Shown: piece after piece, positions 898 to 26,502 of the stretch
Numbering within the stretch: the first letter of the stretch is position 1
Layout of the letters: each line of letters begins with the position of its first letter
Assembly (NCBI RefSeq): GCF_018688235.1
Contig: NZ_CP061313.1
Span: forward strand, 1,570,538 to 1,602,537
Length of the DNA: 32,000 nucleotides
Reading direction: 5' to 3'
DNA from: Polynucleobacter sp. AP-Nino-20-G2
Lineage (GTDB): Bacteria > Pseudomonadota > Gammaproteobacteria > Burkholderiales > Burkholderiaceae
Translations under genes and position numbers: made by a program
The notes under the pieces: model-generated
The model's database searches: none
Told to the model about the DNA's origin: nothing
What the model saw: only the letters and a program-made list of their open reading frames with translations

Positions 898-1139
898 TTA
901 TGAGAGCAGAAGCCCATAATAGAGCCATATAAACAGGGGCTCTGCGGGTGGTCAGTGTCGATGTGTAAGTAAATGTGTGAGCAAATTCACGCATTTACTA
1001 GAAGAGCTCTCGGACTCTTTGGTCTTCAAAACCACAGGAATTTTGGAACAACCATCTAGCACCTCGTTGCTCCAAAGTACTTTCTAGAGGAATAAGCGTT
1101 ACTTTGAGTAACGCTTATGTAGCGAGGGGCAACTACCGA
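898..1139. repeat. ~240-bp repeat unit, copy 1 (starts with the junction motif TTATGAGAGCAGA, ends ...GCGAGGGGCAACTACCGA)
   Basis: Hand alignment with 3170..3419. The shared TTATGAGAGCAGA start is followed by a diverged middle. The last ~125 nt are well conserved (CTCTTTGGTCTTCAAAACCA...GTTGCTCC...ATAAGCGTTACTTTGAGTAACGCTTAT..GCGAGGGGCA). Confidence 0.6.
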
Positions 1140-2627: not shown

Positions 2628-3089
2628 GGCTACGTGAGGATAAGTGTTGGCTGTAGAGCTAATATTTTAAAAAACCGATTATGCCTCCAATCTATGACTA
2701 ACCTACTAGATTGCGCTTAATAATTTGTTGAGACAAGAGTCTGCGACAATAAAACCCCATTCACCAACCCCGCCCCAATACCCCTTACTTAGACTTACAA
2801 AATAAAAATCGGGTTATGTTCGCTTTGTTTGGAGCTTCTGTCCAAATCTTTCCAAGTAAAACTAAAGATTTAGACAAGATTGAAGTTACTTGCGTTGAAA
2901 TGGAAGCGCTTACACAGTGCAAGTCACCCTCCTAACAATTTACGACATACGTAATGTCGCTTACTGGCCGAAAGCAGCCCTTGAGCACTTGCAAACCAAG
3001 GGCAACAAATAGTTCATTGCTCCAAGCTAGAGCCATATATCTATTGGGGTCTAGCGGTGATATTTGCTACACACCGACTACACATTAAA

Positions 3090-3120
3090 GAAAAACGACT
3101 TAGGAATTTCTCCCTAAGTC
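3090..3120 (-). terminator. terminator-like hairpin directly downstream of the orphan tRNA 3' fragment
   Basis: GACTTAGG-N8-CCTAAGTC (3097..3120), followed on the minus strand by GTTTTT. Confidence 0.45.
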
Positions 3121-3131
3121 GCTAATTTCAT

Positions 3132-3171
3132 TGGTAGGCCCACCAGGACTTGAACCTGGGACCAAAGGATT
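3132..3171 (-). repeat. orphan duplicate of the tRNA 3' exon (att-type direct repeat)
   Basis: TGGTAGGCCCACCAGGACTTGAACCTGGGACCAAAGGATT matches 404..443 at 39 of 40 positions. Identity stops exactly at the exon/intron boundary of the intact gene. Confidence 0.85.
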
Positions 3172-3419
3172 ATGAGAGCAGATACCCAAAGAAAACCATT
3201 AGGATTTCAAGAGGTTACGTTGTCTGGTTATCGGTGTGTGAGTATTTGTGTGACTAGATTAACTAGATCATAAGGAGTAATGCCTCACTCTTTGGTTTTC
3301 AAAACCAATGAATATTTGGAGCAACCATTTCACACTTCGTTGCTCCACAGTGCCTTTTGAGAGATTTATAAGCGTTACTTAAAGTAACGCTTATATAGCG
3401 AGGGGCAGCTAACGATTCG
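3170..3419. repeat. ~240-bp repeat unit, copy 2
   Basis: The unit starts with TTATGAGAGCAGA. Positions 3170..3220 also match 18552..18602 (about 45/51 by hand). It contains three palindromes: TTGGTTTTCAAAACCAA (3292..3308), GGAGCAAC-N13-GTTGCTCC (3318..3346) and TATAAGCGTTACT-TAA-AGTAACGCTTATA (3367..3395). Confidence 0.6.
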
Positions 3420-17437: not shown

Positions 17438-18352
17438 ATGGAATTAAGGCATCTACGCTACTTTGTTGCTGTTGCAGAAGAAAAGAACTTCACTAGAGCT
17501 TCTGAAAAACTGTTCATAGCACAGCCGCCCTTGAGCAGGCAGATCCAACAACTCGAAGAAGAGTTGGGCGTAACTTTGTTTGTAAGGAACTCGCGACCCC
17601 TCAAACTGACAGACGCGGGCAACTTTTTCTATGAGCATGCCAAGCAGGTTTTAGCTAGAACTGGCGAACTCAAGGCTATGACTCAACGGGTTGGTAATAT
17701 CAACCGAATTCTGAATGTCGGTTTTGTTGCATCAACGCTCTACGGAAAACTTCCGAAAATTATTCGAAAATATCGAGCCAAATTTAATTCCATTGAATTG
17801 CGGATGTATGAAATGACAACAATGGAACAGCTCAAAGCTTTGAAAGATGGAAAGATTGATATTGGCTTTGGACGAGTACGTCATGAAGACGCCAATATCA
17901 GACGGATTGTATTGAGGGAGGAAAAACTCATTGCTGCAGTTCCTTATGAGCACCCACTATCAAAATCAAACAAGCCCATCAACTTAAAAGACTTAGCCGA
18001 TGAAAATCTCATTGTCTTTCCAAAAAATCCCCGTCCTAGTTACGCAGACCAAGTATTAAATGGTTTCAAAGAAAGGGATGTTCATCCCAAAAAGATTATT
18101 GAAGTTCGAGAATTACAAATAGCTATTGGCCTTGTTGCTGCAGGCGAAGGTGTATCCATTGTTCCATTTAGCTTGCAGGGCATGAAACGTGATGACGTTG
18201 TATATCTAGAATTAAATGAAAAGCATGCCTACTCCCCCATCATCATGAGCACTAGATCAATGGATAAGTCTGAAGAAATTAAGGCAATGCTTGATTTAAT
18301 TTATTGCATCTATGACGAAGAGGGTATTTCTTATACGAGAGAAGAGTTATAA
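17438..18352 (+). CDS. catR: LysR-family transcriptional activator of the cat/ben genes (CatR/CatM/BenM type)
   Basis: The N-terminal wHTH MELRHLRYFVAVAEEKNFTRASEKLFIAQPPLSRQIQQLEEELG is characteristic. The protein is 304 aa and transcribed divergently from catB. Confidence 0.85.
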   Translation: MELRHLRYFVAVAEEKNFTRASEKLFIAQPPLSRQIQQLEEELGVTLFVRNSRPLKLTDAGNFFYEHAKQVLARTGELKAMTQRVGNINRILNVGFVASTLYGKLPKIIRKYRAKFNSIELRMYEMTTMEQLKALKDGKIDIGFGRVRHEDANIRRIVLREEKLIAAVPYEHPLSKSNKPINLKDLADENLIVFPKNPRPSYADQVLNGFKERDVHPKKIIEVRELQIAIGLVAAGEGVSIVPFSLQGMKRDDVVYLELNEKHAYSPIIMSTRSMDKSEEIKAMLDLIYCIYDEEGISYTREEL

Positions 18353-18420
18353 ATTTGCCGCACACTACAACCCCAATATATTTTTGTAGGTAGATTATTT
18401 AAAGTATCGCCATTGAAAAA

Positions 18421-18442
18421 TGTGTAGTATTTGACTACACAC
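18421..18442. repeat. inverted pair of the GTGTGTAGT-type motif
   Basis: TGTGTAGTATTTGACTACACAC: two copies of the motif family also seen at 716..820 and 3062..3086, here facing each other. Confidence 0.5.
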
Positions 18443-18456
18443 TTTCTAGCATGCCC

Positions 18457-18477
18457 AGCGTTACTTAAAGTAACGCT
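18457..18477. repeat. palindrome AGCGTTACT-TAA-AGTAACGCT (copy 3 of 4)
   Basis: It has the same core as 1092..1118, 3367..3395 and 25425..25441. Confidence 0.6.
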
Positions 18478-18551
18478 CAAATGACCAAACCCCACCTTTA
18501 GTCTCAAAAGCTAGCTTTTTGTAATGTTTAGGTCCTGTTTAGGTTCTCTGG

Positions 18552-18602
18552 TTATGAGAGCAGACATCCAAGGTAGACCATTAGGATTTCAAGGGGTTAC
18601 GT
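18552..18602. repeat. junction motif copy 3 (TTATGAGAGCAGA plus 38 nt), candidate left boundary of the accessory island
   Basis: TTATGAGAGCAGACATCCAAGGTAGACCATTAGGATTTCAAGGGGTTACGT versus 3170..3220 TTATGAGAGCAGATACCCAAAGAAAACCATTAGGATTTCAAGAGGTTACGT. The first 13 nt also occur at 898..910. Confidence 0.7.
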
Positions 18603-18613
18603 CTCCTATATAA

Positions 18614-19135
18614 CTACACTTTATTTAAAAGGTAAAACGATTCAGGCTTCCGCTTTAGCCAGTTTCTAATAGAGTCTTTAGTCACCACATAATGCTCAGC
18701 TGCAGCTCGCATCGTAGGAAATTCACCATCAGGCGTCATGATTGGTTTAGCCGACTTCATGCCAGCCTGACTGGGAGCATTTAAATTTCTTACCGTCTTT
18801 GGTAGCTTTGGATCCAAAAAATAAAATCCTGGCTTTTGCGATCGCTCAATCCACCAATGGATAGTTTGACCTAGTACACCATAAGTCTCAGCAGCAAGCT
18901 TGATTGAAGCAAACTCCCCTAAAGGGGTCATTACCCTTCTTTGCCACTTCGATTTATCAATCGTACCTTGCGCATAACCCCTATTCATAATTTCAGATCT
19001 TTTTTTACCGAAATCGGCCGGAAGCCTCTTACCCTTGAGCGCCATTGTTTGTCGACTCCCATTCCACCTAGAAAACTCCTCCCAAGTAACTTCGGTGCCA
19101 TTACTTAACTTAATCATGTGATTGCTATTGTTCAT
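18614..19135 (-). CDS. hypothetical DNA-binding protein with two NUMOD1/IENR-like HTH modules (paralog B)
   Basis: AAGGAGG Shine-Dalgarno. There are two internal repeats: VMTPLGEFASIKLAAETYGVLGQTIHWWI...FYFLD and IMTPDGEFPTMRAAAEHYVVTKDSIRNWL...FYLL. The N-terminus I.L..G..V.WEEFS.W is shared with the upstream paralog. Confidence 0.6.
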   Translation of the reverse strand: MNNSNHMIKLSNGTEVTWEEFSRWNGSRQTMALKGKRLPADFGKKRSEIMNRGYAQGTIDKSKWQRRVMTPLGEFASIKLAAETYGVLGQTIHWWIERSQKPGFYFLDPKLPKTVRNLNAPSQAGMKSAKPIMTPDGEFPTMRAAAEHYVVTKDSIRNWLKRKPESFYLLNKV

Positions 19136-19145
19136 TTAAGCCTCC

Positions 19146-19670
19146 TTATTCGCTATATAAAAATTCATTTTTTCGCATCGTACGAATCCAAGTCTTAATC
19201 GTTCTAGCGCCAACACCGTAGCGTCTTGCCGCAGCGTTAATCGAGTCAAACTTTCCATCTGGTGTAATGACAACCTTTGCTTTAGATCCTTTCCCTGTAT
19301 CGCCGCTTGCCGTATCTAGAAAATAAAATTCATCGCAGCGTGTTTTACGCATCCAATCCCGTAATTTTTCTGTGTTAACACCATAATGATCTCTAGCTTC
19401 TTTTAACGACGAAAACTTGCCCGCTGGCGTCATTACGGCTTTAGCCATTCCATTCTTGCCACCAAAGTTCCAGTTAATTTTTCGTGTACCTTTTTCATAA
19501 CTTTCCTTTACGATCTGCCGCATTTTGTTCGAATGATCAACACCCCAGACCATGTTTTTAGCATGTGGGTTTAACCCCATTCTTTGCTTATGCGCACTCC
19601 AAGAGGAAAACTCCTCCCAACTTACTTGCCGCCCATCTGCTAGAGAAATAATTACATTGTTATTTTTCAT
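19146..19670 (-). CDS. hypothetical DNA-binding protein with two NUMOD1/IENR-like HTH modules (paralog A)
   Basis: AAGGGGG Shine-Dalgarno. The repeats are VMTPAGKFSSLKEARDHYGVNTEKLRDWM...FYFLD and VITPDGKFDSINAAARRYGVGARTIKTWI...FLY. The architecture matches 18614..19135. Confidence 0.6.
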   Translation of the reverse strand: MKNNNVIISLADGRQVSWEEFSSWSAHKQRMGLNPHAKNMVWGVDHSNKMRQIVKESYEKGTRKINWNFGGKNGMAKAVMTPAGKFSSLKEARDHYGVNTEKLRDWMRKTRCDEFYFLDTASGDTGKGSKAKVVITPDGKFDSINAAARRYGVGARTIKTWIRTMRKNEFLYSE

Positions 19671-19679
19671 ATAGCCCCC

Positions 19680-20498
19680 TTATTCCTCTGTCTCGTTAAG
19701 TAAGCCGCTATCTGCCATACATTGCCAATCTTTAGCATTGATCGCGATAAGCTGCGCTAATTTCACCGCGGTACGTAAACTTATCTTGTCTAACTTTTCT
19801 AAGTTGTCCTCGATGTACTGCAAAATTGCAAACTCTTGTTTTTTGCTCAATTTAAAATCACCCAGTAAGTTTTTCTTTGAAACCATGAAGCACACTTGTT
19901 TAAAGCAGCTTTCCTTTGAGCCGTCAGCAATAACAAGCTTATAACTACGATCTTTTAATGCATCTAAGTGCGCTGAAAGATCGCCTTTTGTACGTCCGTT
20001 AAAGCCAATGTTCGAAATTAGAATTACGCTGCCTTTAAATTCAAACGAGTCCGGAATATTTGTACCTTTCAACGGGGAAGTACTCTCCCAGCTAATTTTT
20101 CGTACCGCAGATGTATCAATTGCTGCTTTTAATAAATTGACTCCTTCAATTTTCTTAAATACCGAATCAATATCATCCAATACCAAAACACTGTTTTCAT
20201 CTCTATGCAAGTACAAATTGCCATACAAGCTCAGCGGGGTCATATGCCCCTTAACTACTTTGTATTTTCCTTGGGCATATTTGTTCAAGTAGTTTTCAAC
20301 AGAGTATGTCTTTCCAACTCCCGGAGGCCCGTTAACAATTAAGTTATGTATTTTTCCGTTTGCAATTTGCTTGATGTAAGTCTCAACATTGCTATAACGC
20401 TTCTCAAGATCCCTGTAATTATCTTTGTCGTATTGACATCCAGCTTTATTGGCTGTCATCCGTAATCCGAAATTGCCGTTTGTTTTAGTTGCGTACAT
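19680..20498 (-). CDS. stand-alone AAA+ ATPase (clamp-loader/RuvB/helicase-loader-like motif set)
   Basis: Walker A HNLIVNGPPGVGKTYS, Walker B VLVLDDIDS, sensor-1 VILISN, an LKDRS arginine motif, and a C-terminal helical lid with ISLRTAVKL. The protein is 272 aa with an AAGGAAA Shine-Dalgarno. Confidence 0.75.
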   Translation of the reverse strand: MYATKTNGNFGLRMTANKAGCQYDKDNYRDLEKRYSNVETYIKQIANGKIHNLIVNGPPGVGKTYSVENYLNKYAQGKYKVVKGHMTPLSLYGNLYLHRDENSVLVLDDIDSVFKKIEGVNLLKAAIDTSAVRKISWESTSPLKGTNIPDSFEFKGSVILISNIGFNGRTKGDLSAHLDALKDRSYKLVIADGSKESCFKQVCFMVSKKNLLGDFKLSKKQEFAILQYIEDNLEKLDKISLRTAVKLAQLIAINAKDWQCMADSGLLNETEE

Positions 20499-20511
20499 GA
20501 TTATTTTTCCT

Positions 20512-21348
20512 TTAGATTGATTGATTTTTTGATTGATTCATTTCTTCGCGCACTTCATGCTTAGCTTGGTCTACTGCTTCACGCACAGCTCGTCTTTTTT
20601 GAGCTTCAGTAACAACCTTAGCTACGCCAGTTCTTGCTTGATCTATGTCTTTGCATAAGTGTTTTGAGAAAAACCTGATCGCGTAATGCTCAAAAGTTAC
20701 TTCAGCTGGCAACTTGCCAAGAACGTTGTACTGACCATTAGCACTTACTGAGCAAATAACATATTCATAAGTGCAGCTCTTGCTGTAAATTCCGTTAAAT
20801 GCTTTGGGTGCATCAAAGCTAGCAAACGGCATTTCGGTGCGTGCATTCAAAAACTCATACGCTAAGCTAAGCTGCTCTTCTTCTAAGTCTTGAATAGCTT
20901 CTGCTGCCTGCGTGTCTACCCCAATAGCGCGTATTTGCTCAATACCGCCAGCCTGCTCTAAATACTCAGTAAACTGCGCTGGGGCAATTTGATTTACCCT
21001 TGCAGTTTGAATTGCCCTTGCATACACGTGTGCAGTTTTACGATCAGCACGAGTGATGTAGCGCACTAATACAGTGACATCAGAGGTATTGTCTTGCGTC
21101 TTAATGCCGTACTGCTCTTGTAGGTTTTTACGAACTATTTTGATCAGATCAGCCTTATCAACAGCCGCATCAAACTGATCAACTAATACTGCAATCTTCC
21201 CTAATAAGCTATACAACGCTTTACGCCCACCAATCACATAATTTGTATTAAATGCCTCATGCTCAGCCGCTAAATCCTCAGCCTGCCCAATCAGCGACTT
21301 TGTTACGCCTAAATTACCCTCCAGAACCACTTCTTGATTTGCTAACAT
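20512..21348 (-). CDS. hypothetical protein, first gene of the island operon
   Basis: 278-aa ORF with an AAGGAAA Shine-Dalgarno and a 13-nt gap to the AAA+ gene. I recognise no motif. The C-terminal tail is charged and helical. Confidence 0.6.
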   Translation of the reverse strand: MLANQEVVLEGNLGVTKSLIGQAEDLAAEHEAFNTNYVIGGRKALYSLLGKIAVLVDQFDAAVDKADLIKIVRKNLQEQYGIKTQDNTSDVTVLVRYITRADRKTAHVYARAIQTARVNQIAPAQFTEYLEQAGGIEQIRAIGVDTQAAEAIQDLEEEQLSLAYEFLNARTEMPFASFDAPKAFNGIYSKSCTYEYVICSVSANGQYNVLGKLPAEVTFEHYAIRFFSKHLCKDIDQARTGVAKVVTEAQKRRAVREAVDQAKHEVREEMNQSKNQSI

Positions 21349-21579
21349 TTTTATTTCCTTTGTAAAAATTGATGTTTAAAAATCACCGAACTTGTTTGTT
21401 GCTGAGTAACAATTTAATTTTTAATTCATCAATTTTTTAGGGATTTGGTTATTGCGCCTTCTCCCTAAATCGCACAAAATACTGAAAATATGACCTCAAT
21501 ACCTGTATTTTTCGATGTGTTAATGTGGAATCAATTTAGCTAGTTAATTAAGCGCAGTAGCTCCAGAGGGCCCATACAA

Positions 21580-22383
21580 ATGACCATTCATTTCTTCTTA
21601 AAGGGGCTTAGCCCTGAAGATCGGCTATTCCCCCAAACTCTGGAGAGCTCCTCAAAACTGGCTAAAGGCACCCTCTATGAATCTTGGTTTGATACCCTCA
21701 AGGCATCACCTTGGTATGAAAAGGTTTCACAGACATTAGAGTTTCCAAGCGAGGTATCCCAAAGAACCTGGGAGCTATTTGGAGACTTACGAGACATAGA
21801 GTTTTCAGCATGGTGGCAACGTACTGGCTATCAGATTTTCTCTGAGCAAGTTCCATACCAAGCCATACAAGTCTTAGATAAAGATCAACCTGAATTAACC
21901 TTCAAATTAAATCAGCCAGTTAATAAACTGCCAACCCTAAAAATAGAAGTTCCATTGAATTTAGCTCCTAAGGCACTAAAAGCTCAATTTGATGAAATAT
22001 TAGAGCGCTACAGTGAGTACTATCGGGAAAAGGATGATCGCTGGGATCACAGTACTGCCCCAGCCCATCAATACCGTGAATCTAAACTAACCTATCAAAC
22101 GATTAAAAAATGGCTTGATGTTTATAAAGCCTATCAGCAGCAATCTGCAAAACCAGGCTTTAAGCTCTACAACTTTGCTTACAAAATGGACCTTCACCCC
22201 ACGCTATTTAAAGGCTTGCGAAAAAATGTGGATGTGCCCGAGGATTTACGTATACAAGCTGCAAATATTGCCAGTGATATTTTGAAATCCGCTAACTTTT
22301 TAATGGCAAACGCTACAGAGATGAAGTTTCCCTGCACTGATCCTCATCCTTGGGCAGTCTCTGAAAAACGCAAAAAGAGCTAA
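21580..22383 (+). CDS. hypothetical protein
   Basis: A 267-aa ORF divergent from the island operon and convergent with the recombinase gene. I recognise no motif. Confidence 0.5.
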   Translation: MTIHFFLKGLSPEDRLFPQTLESSSKLAKGTLYESWFDTLKASPWYEKVSQTLEFPSEVSQRTWELFGDLRDIEFSAWWQRTGYQIFSEQVPYQAIQVLDKDQPELTFKLNQPVNKLPTLKIEVPLNLAPKALKAQFDEILERYSEYYREKDDRWDHSTAPAHQYRESKLTYQTIKKWLDVYKAYQQQSAKPGFKLYNFAYKMDLHPTLFKGLRKNVDVPEDLRIQAANIASDILKSANFLMANATEMKFPCTDPHPWAVSEKRKKS

Positions 22384-22388
22384 GCTTA

Positions 22389-23027
22389 TTAAATTAGCTC
22401 TACCGCTTTACGCTTCATATCGTCATTGACATCAATATAAGCCTGCGTTGTGCTGATATTTCGGTGCCCTGCTAAGCTCATCAGCACTCTTACCCCAATA
22501 CCTTTACTTGCTAAGTTAGTAATGAAGCTACGGCGACCACTATGACTAGTAGCACCAGCGATACCCGCTGCTTTATATATGTGCTTAAAGTGCTGCGTAA
22601 GTGTATTAGCCGTAAATCCGCGTTTTGGATACTTCTGCGTGGGAAAGAATGCGTAGTTGCGGTCTTTAATGGCGATCTCATTGGCAAACGCTTGTAACTC
22701 CGCTTTTAAACGTTCATTTAGGAAGACTGTGCGTGGATGGCGACCTTTAGTTTGCTCTGGCAATAAGCGGATCTCACTTTTGACTTGGTTTTCAGGGTCT
22801 AAAACGTCGCATACACGTAGGGCCGCTACCTCCCCTACTCTGAGCCCACCCCAATGCGTTAATAGCAACATAGCGCGATTACGTACGCTGTGTTTGGTGG
22901 CTTTTATATACTCCAAAACTTGGGTAAGTTCTGTACTACTAAACGATTTTGCTTGTGGCATATAGCTGTCCTTTAAATGTAATAAATACGCAGCTACAGT
23001 ATGTTTTCTGATGTTTGGTTTGGACAA
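22389..23027 (-). CDS. short tyrosine recombinase (catalytic domain only; FimB/FimE-sized)
   Basis: Box I GGLRVGEVAALR and box II HSGRRSFITNLA...LAGHRNISTTQAY give the R..H-x-x-R..H..Y catalytic set. The track start at 23027 is a TTG. The first ATG (MPQAKSF...) would give ~190 aa. Either way there is no N-terminal arm- or core-binding domain of normal size. Confidence 0.85.
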   Translation of the reverse strand: MSKPNIRKHTVAAYLLHLKDSYMPQAKSFSSTELTQVLEYIKATKHSVRNRAMLLLTHWGGLRVGEVAALRVCDVLDPENQVKSEIRLLPEQTKGRHPRTVFLNERLKAELQAFANEIAIKDRNYAFFPTQKYPKRGFTANTLTQHFKHIYKAAGIAGATSHSGRRSFITNLASKGIGVRVLMSLAGHRNISTTQAYIDVNDDMKRKAVELI

Positions 23028-23087
23028 CCGACTATGGCTTAAATGCCACAGAAAAAAGGGCTTTCGATTTCAACGACTTACAAGACA

Positions 23088-23121
23088 ACTACAGGAAAGT
23101 ACTATTTCCTGTAGTTTTTTA
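23088..23121 (+). terminator. orphan terminator-like hairpin upstream of the recombinase gene
   Basis: ACTACAGGAAA-GTACTA-TTTCCTGTAGT followed by TTTTT on the plus strand. No plus-strand gene ends nearby. Confidence 0.5.
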
Positions 23122-23240
23122 TTTAGCCAGTTTTTACTGGAAAACCATGGCATAAATGGCTAAAGTACTAGGAAATACATGACTAGCATTAAAACAAACC
23201 ATTATTAGAAAATCCCACCCAGATACTCACTTTCAATTTC

Positions 23241-23729
23241 ATGAAAAATTTTTATCACATATTTTTTAACGTTGGCATATCTGAGGAGGCGGATTGCTGG
23301 GAGTCTGGGTATTTAAATAATGCCCAGATGGGCGAAATGAACTACATGATGGTTCAAATAGTGAAATCTGAATTGCAATGTATTGAGTTTCAAGTAAAGC
23401 ATGAAGTTCGAAGAATTGAGTCAGGAGGCACACTTTCACAAAAAGAATTCACATCAAAATACTCAGAGTATTTCAATTTATCTAAGGAAGTTTTTGAAGA
23501 AATTCTTGCTATATCAATATTGCCAAAAAAACTTTCTAGATTAAATGACACTGGATTTGTAATCTATAACAAAAATACCATGGGTGAAATTAATGCTGAA
23601 GGGCTTGGTCTCATGCCAAGCGAGCTAAAAACTGCTCGAATTGCATTTACTTCGGTTGAGCAAGAGCCTCTCGGGGAGGATAATTTTTTAGATCATGAAG
23701 AAATTGCAGCGATCTACATTCCCGACTAG
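23241..23729 (+). CDS. hypothetical protein
   Basis: A 162-aa ORF in a visibly AT-rich stretch, with no clear Shine-Dalgarno. It is followed by the weak hairpin TGTGAT-N12-ATCACA plus a T-run. Confidence 0.4.
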   Translation: MKNFYHIFFNVGISEEADCWESGYLNNAQMGEMNYMMVQIVKSELQCIEFQVKHEVRRIESGGTLSQKEFTSKYSEYFNLSKEVFEEILAISILPKKLSRLNDTGFVIYNKNTMGEINAEGLGLMPSELKTARIAFTSVEQEPLGEDNFLDHEEIAAIYIPD

Positions 23730-24107
23730 ATGCATATAGGCGAACTGCGTTCTCCTGTGATTTCGCTTCTCGCTCATCACATTTTTCTTTTCTCTGATTC
23801 TTTTATTAATTGATGATTGGGTGATAGAACTTTTAGCCAAACGACGGCTATAGCACTTAAAAAGCACTATGAGCCGCCGCTACGTGTAGATTGGTCTGAT
23901 GTCACTTCCAGCTAACACGACTCTAGAGGGTATTCCGAAAGACTGATGGATTAAAACTTTCGACCTATTTTGGCATTGATTTGCCTAATAGGAACCTGCG
24001 GCCACCTGTTATACATAACCTCTAGAGCGATTATGTCAGGGCGGGGTCATTAGCCGACGTATTACAACCCGCGTTTTCTGCCGTTTTAGGTGGGCTAACC
24101 TTCACTA

Positions 24108-24476
24108 CTATTGCCTATGTATTTGCCTGCGAATCTTCTTATAAAGATTTAATACTCCAAATATCTGCCTAGCCGTTGCCTGTGTTTGCTTCAAATTAAA
24201 TGTCTGTACTTGCTTTAGTTGCGCCTGATCTAATCGCAGCCTATGTTCTTGCAATAAGCAGTGAGCGGCTCTTTTTGCCAAAATAAACTTGGCTTCCAAA
24301 TCGGGATTGATGCACTTTTCCGGATTAAGTCCCTGCGATCTAAACCATTGATCTGTAGCACTGCTGTCTTTGAGGGTCTTATATCTATTCATATAGTTAT
24401 TTAGCAAACCACACAAATCACCACTAAATTTCTGGTTTCTAGTGGTTACCAATTTTTCAGGTTGCTCAACCACCAT
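24108..24476 (-). CDS. hypothetical protein (weakly supported)
   Basis: A 122-aa ORF with a poor ribosome-binding site. It is divergent from 24524 with only 47 nt between the starts. Confidence 0.35.
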   Translation of the reverse strand: MVVEQPEKLVTTRNQKFSGDLCGLLNNYMNRYKTLKDSSATDQWFRSQGLNPEKCINPDLEAKFILAKRAAHCLLQEHRLRLDQAQLKQVQTFNLKQTQATARQIFGVLNLYKKIRRQIHRQ

Positions 24477-24523
24477 TTCTGATCATATTGTTGTATGTGC
24501 CCATTCACTATTAAGGAGTAAAC

Positions 24524-24961
24524 ATGAGCACACTAGAAACACTGAAATTCGTCAGCGTTACTAAACCCACTAAATTACCCGCTGTTGTCCAAAGACGTAA
24601 TAAGCTATCCGATAAGCTTTGGGAACAGATCCAATTAGCTGAAGCTAAAAGCGCTGGCACAAGCTATGCCCCATTGAAAACCAAACGATTAAAAGATATT
24701 GAAGGCAATATCAAAATCTTAGAAGTGCCAAAACGTATCAAGCCTTGGTGGTTTACTGCCCAAAATGGCAAGTCCTGCCTTGTTGTCAGGTACGGATCCA
24801 AAACGCTAGAAATATCACAAGGTAAATCGGCTATTGAGCTAGATAAGCCCTATGAACTTATACATACATTAGAGATGATTAAAACGGCTGTAGAAGCTGG
24901 CGAGCTAGATGCACAAATAGAGCGGGCGGCTGGACTGCTTAAAGAAGGGTTTCTCAAATGA
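24524..24961 (+). CDS. conserved hypothetical protein common in proteobacterial genomic islands
   Basis: AAGGAG Shine-Dalgarno. The pattern LPAVVQRRNKL...WEQIQLAEA...VPKRIKPWWF...VRYG...ELDAQIE is one I recall from uncharacterised island proteins. That is memory, not a search. Confidence 0.6.
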   Translation: MSTLETLKFVSVTKPTKLPAVVQRRNKLSDKLWEQIQLAEAKSAGTSYAPLKTKRLKDIEGNIKILEVPKRIKPWWFTAQNGKSCLVVRYGSKTLEISQGKSAIELDKPYELIHTLEMIKTAVEAGELDAQIERAAGLLKEGFLK

Positions 24962-25107
24962 AGAAATACTTACTATGGGTACGTATTAACCAAACCCAAA
25001 CCGCCAATACGATTGTGTATGCAGAAGGTCAATATCAAGCCAGGCAATTGGGTGAGATGCAGTACGGCATAGGAAATGTACTTAATTACACAGAAATTCA
25101 TGAATAA
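24958..25107 (+). CDS. small ORF (49 aa) translationally coupled to the preceding gene
   Basis: It falls below the track cutoff. The ATGA overlap with the stop of 24524..24961 gives MKKYLLWVRINQTQTANTIVYAEGQYQARQLGEMQYGIGNVLNYTEIHE. Confidence 0.4.
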   Translation: MKKYLLWVRINQTQTANTIVYAEGQYQARQLGEMQYGIGNVLNYTEIHE

Positions 25108-25130
25108 TAAGCATTGGGTTAAATACATTA

Positions 25131-25313
25131 ATGCGCTTCTATGAATTTGGCATTAAACCCATTAAACCCTTATCAGCCCTAACCCCTGAAAAAGCACGCC
25201 TTGCCCACCTCAAGCAATCTAGCGAGCGAGCCAAAAAACTTTATAAGGCTGAACGAGAGCGACAAAACCTGATTAAATCCCAACGTAAGATTTTTAATCT
25301 TTCGAGACCTTGA
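25131..25313 (+). CDS. small basic hypothetical protein (weakly supported)
   Basis: A 60-aa Lys/Arg-rich ORF with no clear Shine-Dalgarno. Confidence 0.3.
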   Translation: MRFYEFGIKPIKPLSALTPEKARLAHLKQSSERAKKLYKAERERQNLIKSQRKIFNLSRP

Positions 25314-25424
25314 TTCATTTTGACTGAAATCGGGCTGGTTTTTGGTGGTTTTAAGTCAAAAAAGGGATCAATTATCATGACGGATGTCAGGCTATGCTAC
25401 GCTGGCTTTAAATACCTTTATCAC

Positions 25425-25441
25425 CGTTACTTTAAGTAACG
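25425..25441. repeat. palindrome CGTTACT-TTA-AGTAACG (copy 4 of 4)
   Basis: It has the same core as the three other copies. About 25 nt of left-flank sequence (TGCTACGCTGGCTTTAAATACCTTTATCAC) also loosely resembles the flank in repeat unit 2 (TGCTCCACAGTGCCTTTTGAGAGATTTATAAG). Confidence 0.5.
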
Positions 25442-25499
25442 ATTGGCTACCTGCAATACTAGAAAACTCAAATTAAGCAACCGCAAAGAAAATCTAATC

Positions 25500-25841
25500 A
25501 TGCCTAAATCACTTGAAGATTATCAGCTTGAATTTGATCACCTTGATCAATACTTGTCTGACTCTTTAGATAATGGAATCATAACGGGGGATCACTATGA
25601 CAATGCCGGAATGATCATTAGCGCTCTATATCCTGATGAGACTCGTAGCATTAATATGAAGAATGGAAATCTTGACGAAGGCTCGGACCCAGATGATATT
25701 GGCGGGATTCCGATGCTAGATATGCTATTTAAGGCAGTTGATGATAAGAAACAATTTGTGAGTGATTTTAGAGAGGCAATTAAAGAATGCCGAAACTACA
25801 ATATTGATGAGGTTGTAGCTGAAATTATCAAATCAAGATAA
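25500..25841 (+). CDS. small strongly acidic hypothetical protein
   Basis: From the first ATG the sequence is MPKSLEDYQLEFDHLDQYLSDSLDNGIITGDHYDN...DEGSDPDDIGG.... Asp/Glu residues clearly outnumber Lys/Arg. The track's longer form starts at a TTG at 25443. Confidence 0.5.
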   Translation: MPKSLEDYQLEFDHLDQYLSDSLDNGIITGDHYDNAGMIISALYPDETRSINMKNGNLDEGSDPDDIGGIPMLDMLFKAVDDKKQFVSDFREAIKECRNYNIDEVVAEIIKSR

Positions 25842-25845
25842 CTAC

Positions 25846-26502
25846 ATGACCAAAACCATTATTTTCGATACCGAAGCTACGGGCATAAAAGAACCCGTAT
25901 TAATTGAAGCTGCTTGGGTTGAGCTTGAGTCTATTGAGCCCTTTACTGTTACCAACCCTTTCGTACAGCGTTATAACCCTGGTAAACCCATTACCCTTGG
26001 TGCACTAGCTACTCATCACATTATGGATGAAGAGTTAGTTGATTGCCCACCAGCAGCTAGCTTCACCTTGCCTGGGCATGTGGACTACATCATTGGGCAT
26101 AACGTGGACTTTGACTGGGAAGTAATTGGCAAACCTGAAATCAAACGTATTTGCACGCTGGCACTTGCTCGCAAGCTTTGGCCAGATTTAGATAGCCATA
26201 ATCAAAGCGCACTGATGTATTACTTAGAGCGGGCTACAGCACGTGAGCAATTACGCAATGCCCACTCAGCCATTGCAGATGTTGGTGTTTGTGCTGTGAT
26301 CCTTGATCATATTTGCCAGCAGCTAGGCGTTAAAACTATTGAAGATTTATATAAGGAATCCGAGAAGGCTAGAACCCCAACCACAATGCCATTTGGCAAA
26401 CATAAAGGCTTATTGCTAGCGGATGTTCCCAGTGATTACAAACAGTGGCTACTGACTCAAGGAGATATTGATCCCTACTTACGGAAGGCATTAGGAGCAT
26501 AG
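25846..26502 (+). CDS. exoX: DEDDh 3'-5' exonuclease, exodeoxyribonuclease X-like
   Basis: Exo motifs IIFDTEATG (Exo I), GHNVDFDW (Exo II) and HSAIADV (Exo III, DEDDh). ICTLALARKLWP and the C-terminal MPFGKHKGLLLADVPSDYKQWLL tail parallel E. coli ExoX (ICTMKLARRLWP ... FGKYRGKAVSDV..GYLRWL), as I remember it. Confidence 0.7.
   Translation: MTKTIIFDTEATGIKEPVLIEAAWVELESIEPFTVTNPFVQRYNPGKPITLGALATHHIMDEELVDCPPAASFTLPGHVDYIIGHNVDFDWEVIGKPEIKRICTLALARKLWPDLDSHNQSALMYYLERATAREQLRNAHSAIADVGVCAVILDHICQQLGVKTIEDLYKESEKARTPTTMPFGKHKGLLLADVPSDYKQWLLTQGDIDPYLRKALGA

Follow-up and report, generated by a model that had tools for sequence, protein, structure and literature searches.

We analysed a stretch of 32,000 nucleotides of Polynucleobacter sp. 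AP-Nino-20-G2 (contig NZ_CP061313.1, positions 1,570,538 to 1,602,537), here called the window, in which four closely spaced minus-strand genes make up one operon, located at the right end of a mobile element (Table 1). In order, they encode P278, an AAA+ ATPase and two paralogous helix-turn-helix (HTH) proteins, HTHa and HTHb, which we refer to as putative DNA-binding adaptors. The genes are separated by 13, 9 and 10 nt and each is preceded, 5–9 nt before its start, by a Shine-Dalgarno sequence (AAGGAA, AAGGAAA, AAGGGGG and AAGGAGG, respectively), in agreement with a first-pass annotation of this DNA, which had described four such minus-strand genes with gaps of 9–13 nt. The open reading frames are not chance occurrences, since homologous protein clusters number 223 for P278, 265 for the ATPase and 59 for the adaptor. 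The GC content of the operon is 0.41, against 0.43 in the flanks. A simple scan of the minus strand gave no terminator-like site inside the operon, and the corresponding promoter scan gave a single weak match (9 of 12 positions), within P278. A promoter in the divergent intergenic region upstream of P278 is presumed from its position only, and a simple scan found no consensus sigma-70 promoter there. Searches of the four proteins against Pfam, PHROGs, PADLOC and NCBIfam revealed no nuclease, helicase, methylase, relaxase, capsid or secretion signature, as had been remarked from the sequence before. At the DNA level, the region had no match in phages or plasmids.

We compared the gene order at related loci, numbered here with the prefix L. 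The P278 survey comprised about 80 metagenome homologues, with 45 loci extending at least 1.2 kb downstream and therefore judged. The ATPase gene is next to P278 in 26 of the 45 and absent from the other 19, and at some of the 26 the ATPase is only ~30% identical to that of the window. P278 stands alone, with no ATPase–HTH pair, in L008–L012; where the pair is missing, its slot is filled by other genes, for example a GNAT acetyltransferase or a large integrase together with a NERD protein. When the loci were centred on the ATPase, P278 was present in two of the 11 distinct genome loci and absent from nine, and the pair without P278 was also seen in phage contigs. At each of the 11 distinct bacterial genome loci an adaptor gene is the neighbour of the ATPase gene, and in 22 of 25 metagenome loci it follows the ATPase gene, including some of the ~30%-identical ATPase clade. 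The pair is kept in phage contigs at ATPase identities of 33–57% and in either gene order; in three of these (L032–L034) it immediately precedes the genes for terminase, portal, scaffold and capsid. The complete four-gene set was found only in the window, in near-identical metagenome relatives (L001 and L003–L006) and in L056, while L002 and L007 are cut or frameshifted, so that they do not hold the set in full. Thus, the conserved unit is the pair of ATPase and HTH adaptor, and we are highly confident that the operon is built of two separable modules, P278 and this pair. The idea of a dedicated four-gene system, raised in the first-pass annotation, is not borne out, since P278 and the pair each occur separately. 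A lack of conservation of the four-gene arrangement, named there as counting against such a system, applies in part: the arrangement is conserved in the near-identical relatives and L056, but not in the rest of the surveyed loci.

By its motifs, the ATPase is a catalytically complete member of the AAA+ superfamily. It contains HNLIVNGPPGVGKT, with a Walker A of the form GPPGVGKT, followed by VLVLDDID, ILISN and LKDRS. The motif set had been read as complete from the sequence alone, and this was strengthened by an alignment of 40 homologues, in which the Walker A residues G57–K63, the Walker B residues D108 and D109, Asn163 of sensor 1, the arginine finger Arg184 and Arg242 of sensor 2 are invariant. 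Residues 25–266 align to positions 79–325 of the 327-position profile of phrog_1250 (E=9.5e-66), and the protein is ~35% identical to the phage nrdC.10 genes. A tblastn search matched 1,307 GenBank phage records, from T4-like and jumbo phages, with 1,234 of these covering at least 80% of the query, while only one of 72,556 plasmids carried a relative. Homology thus assigns the ATPase to the uncharacterised T4 NrdC.10/phrog_1250 family. The profile match extends over the AAA+ core and lid, and the motifs LNLLKAA.DT and SLRTA and a hairpin region are common to both. The window protein differs in lacking the ~80-residue N-terminal extension of the phage members (272 residues, compared with 327–378), in having an HTH partner and in residing on a chromosomal island. 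In the only publication that we found on it, NrdC.10 itself is noted to contain an AAA motif and to occur in three of six T4-like genomes (PMC1524935).

We used AlphaFold2 (AF2) to explore the structure of the ATPase. The model (mean predicted local distance difference test score, pLDDT, of 81) has an α-β-α core and a helical lid, and a β-hairpin (strands 133–136 and 151–154) is inserted between the helix 117–126 and the sensor-1 strand 157–162. Foldseek returned 324 PDB matches at E≤1e-3, and the 50 best were all AAA+ proteins. The Lon AAA+ module and RuvB were the best structural matches, followed by MuB, ORC/Cdc6, RFC and MoxR-type proteins, with template modelling (TM) scores of 0.43–0.58. 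A sequence profile of the ATPase had no match among PDB sequences. Against curated DnaC, IstB, ORC and RFC models the ATPase reached 13–20 bits, with cut-offs of 181–354 bits. The individual scores were 20 bits against a cut-off of 215 for the DnaC-like NF005304, 16.2 against 189 for PRK08116, 15.3 against 200 for IstB, 15.4 against 299 for RuvB (TIGR00635), 16.4 against 317 for RFC and 16 against 181 for Orc1/Cdc6, which places all of them 10–20 times below the curated cut-offs.

HTHa and HTHb are true paralogues with two HTH repeats each (35% identity over the full length, E=8e-31), which upholds their earlier description as tandem-HTH paralogs. Beyond the window, a second adaptor gene was seen only in L056 and in those near-identical contigs long enough to include it (L001–L006), and in L013 and L029 the gene at this position is unrelated. 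HTHb is a duplicate seen only in the window and its close relatives. The adaptor family is composed of a conserved N-terminal domain of ~35 residues followed by one to four NUMOD1-type HTH repeats, also of ~35 residues each. The N-terminal domain, with the family-specific consensus V.LANG..V.W.EFS.WS..KQ, is not an HTH and is the best conserved portion of the protein. Among 11 family members, NUMOD1 was matched in six (best E=3.4e-8) and HTH_28 in ten, and repeats of the family also match the I-HmuI_NUMOD-like and I-TevI_DNA-bd models. HTHa of the window scored 15 bits against the Pfam NUMOD1 model PF07453, below the cut-off of 22.8 bits (E=0.031), and precomputed PF07453 hits exist for several of its relatives. 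The adaptor homologue in L032 matched the DNA-binding part of phrog_314, a homing endonuclease, at E=6.7e-11, and the most remote relative of the adaptor is a true GIY-YIG endonuclease. No nuclease domain was found in the adaptors and the adaptor profile had no match among PDB sequences. These similarities suggest that the adaptor binds DNA through modules of the kind found in homing endonucleases. It shares family-level matches with the NUMOD1 modules of I-TevI and I-HmuI, but is free of a nuclease domain, has its own N-terminal domain and is paired with an ATPase gene.

P278 had been called unrecognisable and, after sequence and structure searches, it remains so. Neither the window protein nor 52 relatives matched Pfam; PHROGs, PADLOC and NCBIfam gave no identification; the profile had no match in the PDB; and phages, viral contigs and plasmids contained no match. 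The AF2 model (pLDDT of 89.7) is all-helical, apart from one β-hairpin, with long N- and C-terminal helices. Foldseek found no match for it, with best E-values of 1.5 in the PDB and 0.08 in BFVD. Ten of the relatives are longer, and their N-terminal extensions gave nothing informative against Pfam. A full HMMER search among 1.84 billion representatives gave a family of 711 members, counted as representatives at 50% identity; its mean column identity is 46%. P278 is an orphan helical protein that travels with the backbone of the mobile element.

We placed the element through two Polynucleobacter genomes (L015 and L017) that contain a 7.66-kb copy, 98% identical between them, flanked by different chromosomal genes; the island context suggested by the first-pass annotation is therefore real. 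This copy is limited by the stop codon of an exonuclease gene on one side and by a point ~220 bp beyond the HTH gene on the other. The ends in the window match those of the copy at 88–90% nucleotide identity, from which the extent of the element was derived, and ends, exonuclease gene and recombinase gene are all within 80–90%. Its GC content is 0.406, compared with 0.43 in the flanks. The backbone consists of a DnaQ-like exonuclease, a DUF6641 protein, a short tyrosine recombinase, P267 and P278, and recurs in many contigs from lake metagenomes as well as in genomes of Polynucleobacter and Limnohabitans. These are a family of small mobile elements in freshwater Burkholderiales (Polynucleobacter and Limnohabitans), which appears to be undescribed. 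Several small open reading frames lie between the recombinase and DUF6641 genes. Below the operon, the window holds ordinary catechol-pathway genes, the last being a LysR regulator at 18352, and past the exonuclease are ordinary hydrolase, amidase and ABC-transporter genes.

Table 1 Features of the operon and of the mobile element, with positions in the window.
Feature	Position	Strand	Remarks
P278	21348-20512	minus	278 aa, ATG start
AAA+ ATPase	20498-19680	minus	272 aa, ATG start
HTHa, putative DNA-binding adaptor	19670-19146	minus	174 aa, ATG start
HTHb, adaptor paralogue	19135-18614	minus	173 aa, ATG start
Stem-loop and T-run, likely operon terminator	18417-18445	minus	12-nt arms, 92% complementary; 3' of HTHb
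Divergent intergenic region P278/P267, presumed promoter/operator	21349-21579		inverted repeat 21364-21382 / 21419-21437
Whole mobile element, ~8.1 kb	~18,404-26,502		delimited by DNA matches with the ends of the 7.66-kb L015/L017 element; right boundary approximate
P267, conserved backbone protein	21580-22383	plus	267 aa; gene convergent with the recombinase gene
Short tyrosine recombinase, catalytic domain only	22389-23027	minus	PF00589 E=2.9e-26; phrog_216 E=2e-41
DUF6641 backbone protein	24524-24961	plus	PF20346 E=2.6e-18; in nearly all related elements
DnaQ-like exonuclease (RNase_T and QSregVF_b)	25846-26502	plus	stop codon is the left boundary of the element
Recombinase-core-like site, intact, GGATGTCTG-CTCTCATAA-CCAGAGAACC with inverted arms	18542-18569	minus	just 3' of the operon

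The exonuclease is 92–96% identical at the amino acid level across most related elements, compared with 40–80% for their other genes, and the DNA common to these elements stops exactly at its stop codon. The recombinase reading frame as listed begins at a TTG and encodes 212 residues; since the related loci are called at 190 residues, the true start is probably the ATG at 22961. At 190–212 residues, the protein has no N-terminal core-binding (SAM-like) domain. P267 showed a weak match (E=8e-6) to a 289-residue protein at the same position in L015 and a marginal one (E=0.004) to a 336-residue protein of L126, and its profile had no match among PDB sequences. L126 (1-10343) and L127 (1-9465) are circularly permuted contigs of a distant relative of ~10.5 kb, in which a serine resolvase stands in place of the short tyrosine recombinase; they also encode P267-like and P278-like proteins, a large integrase, a NERD protein, DUF6876 and DUF6641. 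The relative is probably circular or tandemly repeated and, because these contigs are circularly permuted, the family probably has a circular phase.

Copies of the core site were located at L012:11018, L013:4172 and 12151, and L017:11892. In these three loci the core is fused to the 3' half of a tRNA-Ile at the right side of the element, and in L013 it is present at both ends, which suggests that the integrase of the relatives (450–460 residues) may insert the element into the anticodon loop of the tRNA. This large integrase is missing from the window element, in which the intact core-like site lies inside the right end. In the window element we found neither a primase or Rep nor a small terminase, a gene redirecting capsid size or AlpA.

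Two further kinds of sequence were noted in connection with the element. A 17-nt palindrome, CGTTACTTWAAGTAACG, was considered as its terminal repeats (18459 and 25425) and rejected, since it also occurs at 1097 and 3373 and in many places outside such elements. It is present four times in the window (1097–1113, 3373–3389, 18459–18475 and 25425–25441), with none expected by chance, and, as a genome-wide repeat, recurs many times in Polynucleobacter loci, both within the element and beyond it, frequently just 3' of genes. Separately, relatives of the element have toxin- or defence-type genes immediately beyond the exonuclease end or at the right end (L012:1-4480, L011:4264-4751, L015:2823-3893 and L008:14465-16492), for example EH_Signature with an SNF2/Mrr helicase (Zorya-like), ParDE, Fic and repeated zeta-toxin-like/VbhA pairs.

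We propose that the HTH partner would act as a sequence-reading adaptor, whose N-terminal domain may dock an oligomeric AAA+ ring onto particular DNA, and that ATP hydrolysis would then remodel the bound DNA, or proteins bound to it, in the manner of RuvA–RuvB. We give this combination of adaptor and motor an even chance of being right. A motor of the RuvB kind is proposed because of the hairpin before sensor 1, and because RuvB, Lon and MoxR, and not DnaC or IstB, are among the best structural matches. Moreover, mean column identities of 62% (ATPase) and 36% (adaptor), together with the variation from one to four HTH repeats among the adaptors, are as expected if a conserved motor works with a specificity subunit that varies.

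RuvA–RuvB would be a comparison of working mode and not of family membership. RuvB is matched structurally at E=5e-7 to 1e-5 and has its insert at the same place before sensor 1; in both systems, a separate gene for a DNA-binding partner adjoins the motor gene. The arginine-finger motif of RuvB, LRDRF, resembles LKDRS in the window. The systems differ in that TIGR00635 falls far below its cut-off, that the operon encodes no RuvA-like protein, and that the adaptor is a NUMOD1 HTH array, presumably reading sequence rather than DNA structure. With DnaC and IstB the ATPase has in common that it is a small stand-alone AAA+ protein encoded beside a DNA-binding partner on mobile DNA, and shows weak P-loop matches (phrog_50 at 4.8e-5, covering residues 23–79 only; NF005304 at 3e-4; IstB at 0.012). 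Neither protein is, however, among the 50 best structural matches, and a hairpin insert before sensor 1 is not known as a feature of the DnaC/IstB clade.

The pair is of phage type and appears to be of phage origin, because of the phrog_1250 match, the 1,307 phage records against a single plasmid among 72,556, and the phage context of L032–L034. Of the replication or partition role put forward in the first-pass annotation, the plasmid-type form becomes less likely with these counts, and the pair is probably not such a device. We suggest, with rather less assurance than for the mechanism, that the island turns this phage-derived accessory pair towards phages, where it might hijack the DNA metabolism or packaging of a helper or exclude a phage. 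A role between island and phage is proposed because the pair stands beside terminase genes in the phage contigs, because the ATPase is an accessory gene in T4-like phages and because the pair sits in a variable cargo slot. A stand-alone defence system would be a sub-case of this explanation. The PADLOC-DB v2 defence models gave best E-values of 7e-3, 1.6e-3, 3e-4 and 1.4e-3 for the four proteins, all short generic P-loop or HTH matches, and none of the proteins is a recognisable effector; the defence or anti-defence role suggested earlier is therefore moved neither way. Taken as a whole, the modular operon, the adaptor-targeted AAA+ remodeller and the phage-directed role form the explanation that we favour, with a confidence that falls slightly short of even. 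A more specific version, in which a hitherto unrecognised, sequence-targeted two-component AAA+ DNA motor common to phages and to a new family of satellite-like islands of abundant freshwater bacteria would seize the processing or packaging of a helper genome, or block a phage without a nuclease, we regard as unlikely.

In its general plan the element resembles phage satellites and small integrative islands (PICI, P4-like elements, PICMI and tycheposons). PICI and P4-like satellites combine an integrase with a primase or Rep and with genes redirecting packaging or capsid size, and are induced by a helper phage. It is ~8 kb long, with a recombinase, phage-derived genes, a variable cargo slot and no capsid or conjugation genes, and its relatives have tRNA-linked attachment sites and a circular form. 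The backbone (P267, P278, DUF6641 and the exonuclease) is unlike the genes of PICI, P4-like elements, PICMI and tycheposons.

Several points weigh against the explanation that we favour. The binding of adaptor to ATPase, the ring oligomer and the DNA target are all what we infer from sequence. No repeated DNA motif that might serve as an adaptor site was found beside the operon, and no adaptor gene was detectable in the 1,307 cultured-phage records of T4-like and jumbo phages that hold an ATPase homologue. We considered whether the N-terminal extension of NrdC.10 could be a fused adaptor N-terminal domain, as a Rosetta-stone link, and rejected this (hhalign probability of 0.2%); since the extension is unrelated to the adaptor domain, gene fusion lends the pairing no support. 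The Foldseek E-values for RuvB, Lon, MuB, ORC and RFC are within about two orders of magnitude of each other and, given these close values and TM-scores of 0.43–0.58, the assignment to an AAA+ clade depends on how the topology is read. The position beside the terminase genes in three phage contigs could mark no more than the end of the early-gene region. In addition, the pair adjoins P278 in 58% of P278 loci, among them loci of the divergent ATPase clade, and because of this P278 and the pair may cooperate more than the word separable implies.

The best-surviving alternative, though an unlikely one, is that the operon is the replication module of the excised element, with P278 as the initiator, the ATPase as a DnaC/IstB-like loader and the HTH proteins as origin-binding accessory factors. 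Phage initiator–loader pairs have a similar order, with an unknown protein followed by an AAA+ ATPase, and an episomal phase is plausible from the circularly permuted relative of ~10.5 kb. The ATPase does match DnaC-like, ORC/Cdc6 and RFC models weakly, and ORC/Cdc6 and MuB appear among the Foldseek matches, but the loader and initiator models align around the P-loop only and far below their cut-offs. Clear homology to a known initiator–loader pair, named in the first-pass annotation as the sign of an ordinary replication module, was thus not found (13–20 bits against 181–354). Nor do the hairpin in front of sensor 1 and the RuvB and Lon matches at the head of the Foldseek list suit the DnaC/IstB clade. 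Diverging specificities of Rep proteins for their origins would, like the adaptor and motor, yield a conserved motor and a fast-evolving DNA binder; however, neither iterons nor a repeat-flanked AT-rich block that could be an origin was found near the operon, and P278 and the pair are mutually dispensable. Finally, the ATPase family is virtually absent from plasmids and abundant in T4-like phages, which own a complete replisome, and occurs in only some of them.

Less probable still is that the HTH proteins and the ATPase target or activate the short recombinase, as FtsK does for XerCD, or as TnsC, MuB and IstB do with transposases. The recombinase is indeed reduced to a catalytic domain (best models XerA, XerD and XerC, all below their cut-offs), MuB is one of the better structural matches of the ATPase (target-normalised TM-score of 0.53) and an intact core-like site directly follows the operon. 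The pair is within one or two genes of the short recombinase, in two layouts, at most genome loci that show one, but an 8-kb element puts all of its genes close together, so that proximity is of little weight. Furthermore, 42% of the P278-bearing elements have the recombinase without the pair, while no such recombinase is near the pair where it occurs in phage contigs, or near the ATPase gene of the 1,307 phages. P267 is the better candidate for a recombinase partner, since its gene is convergent with that of the recombinase and is kept where a serine resolvase replaces it.

We consider it equally improbable that there is no joint machine, with the HTH proteins as ordinary transcription regulators and the ATPase and P278 as unrelated co-transcribed cargo. 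Generic HTH models of regulators and transposases do match the repeats, and an inverted repeat lies upstream of the operon, as this would have it. However, the ATPase and adaptor genes stay adjacent as ATPase identity drops from 100% to ~30%, in either order and in phages and islands alike, and the best conserved part of the adaptor is its non-HTH N-terminal domain. A partition system, with the ATPase as ParA and the HTH protein as ParB on an episomal centromere, is very improbable: parAB operons do have the same order of ATPase and then DNA binder, and an episomal relative exists, but the Walker A is the classical AAA+ GPPGVGKT and not the deviant KGGxxK of ParA, no centromere-like repeat array was found, and the family is almost absent from plasmids and common in lytic T4-like phages, which need no partition.

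We found no description in the literature, under any name, of this element, of the pairing of the ATPase with NUMOD1-HTH proteins or of the P278 family, and no paper that mentions DUF6641. The ATPase is a further member of a known but uncharacterised phage family, here in an accessory module of AAA+ protein and DNA-binding protein on a mobile element. This family occurs in more than 1,300 sequenced phages, including T4 relatives, and in the islands and in environmental phage contigs it comes with an obligate-looking DNA-binding partner, a pairing that suggests an adaptor–motor mechanism acting on specific DNA. If the two-component motor is correct, it would provide the first functional handle on T4 NrdC.10. 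Should the phage-directed role be correct, the elements would be compact, of a satellite-like or exclusion kind, and their effector would be of a new type; should it be wrong, the locus is still a clean case of modules shuffling between phages and islands. The host genera, Polynucleobacter and Limnohabitans, are dominant freshwater bacterioplankton, and the element family alternates between a tyrosine and a serine recombinase at the same position of the backbone.

Elsewhere in the window, a tRNA-Ile(UAU) gene on the minus strand (404–703) contains a 223-nt group I intron that splits its anticodon loop (Rfam RF00028, 55.7 bits with a gathering threshold of 50), and ARAGORN finds the tRNA only with its intron option. 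The 3' exon (404–443) is repeated 2.7 kb away at 3132–3171 with 97.5% identity, beside the core CTGCTCTCATAA. The two copies flank an autotransporter gene (1209–2627), in what looks like a small tRNA-integrated islet. A further repeat pair is located at 898–1139 and 3170–3415, with related repeats of ~130 bp at 1014–1139 and 3287–3415. The intergenic segments 359–443, 898–1117 and 3005–3396 have 75–100% nucleotide identity to flanks of the element in Polynucleobacter sinensis and P. paneuropaeus.

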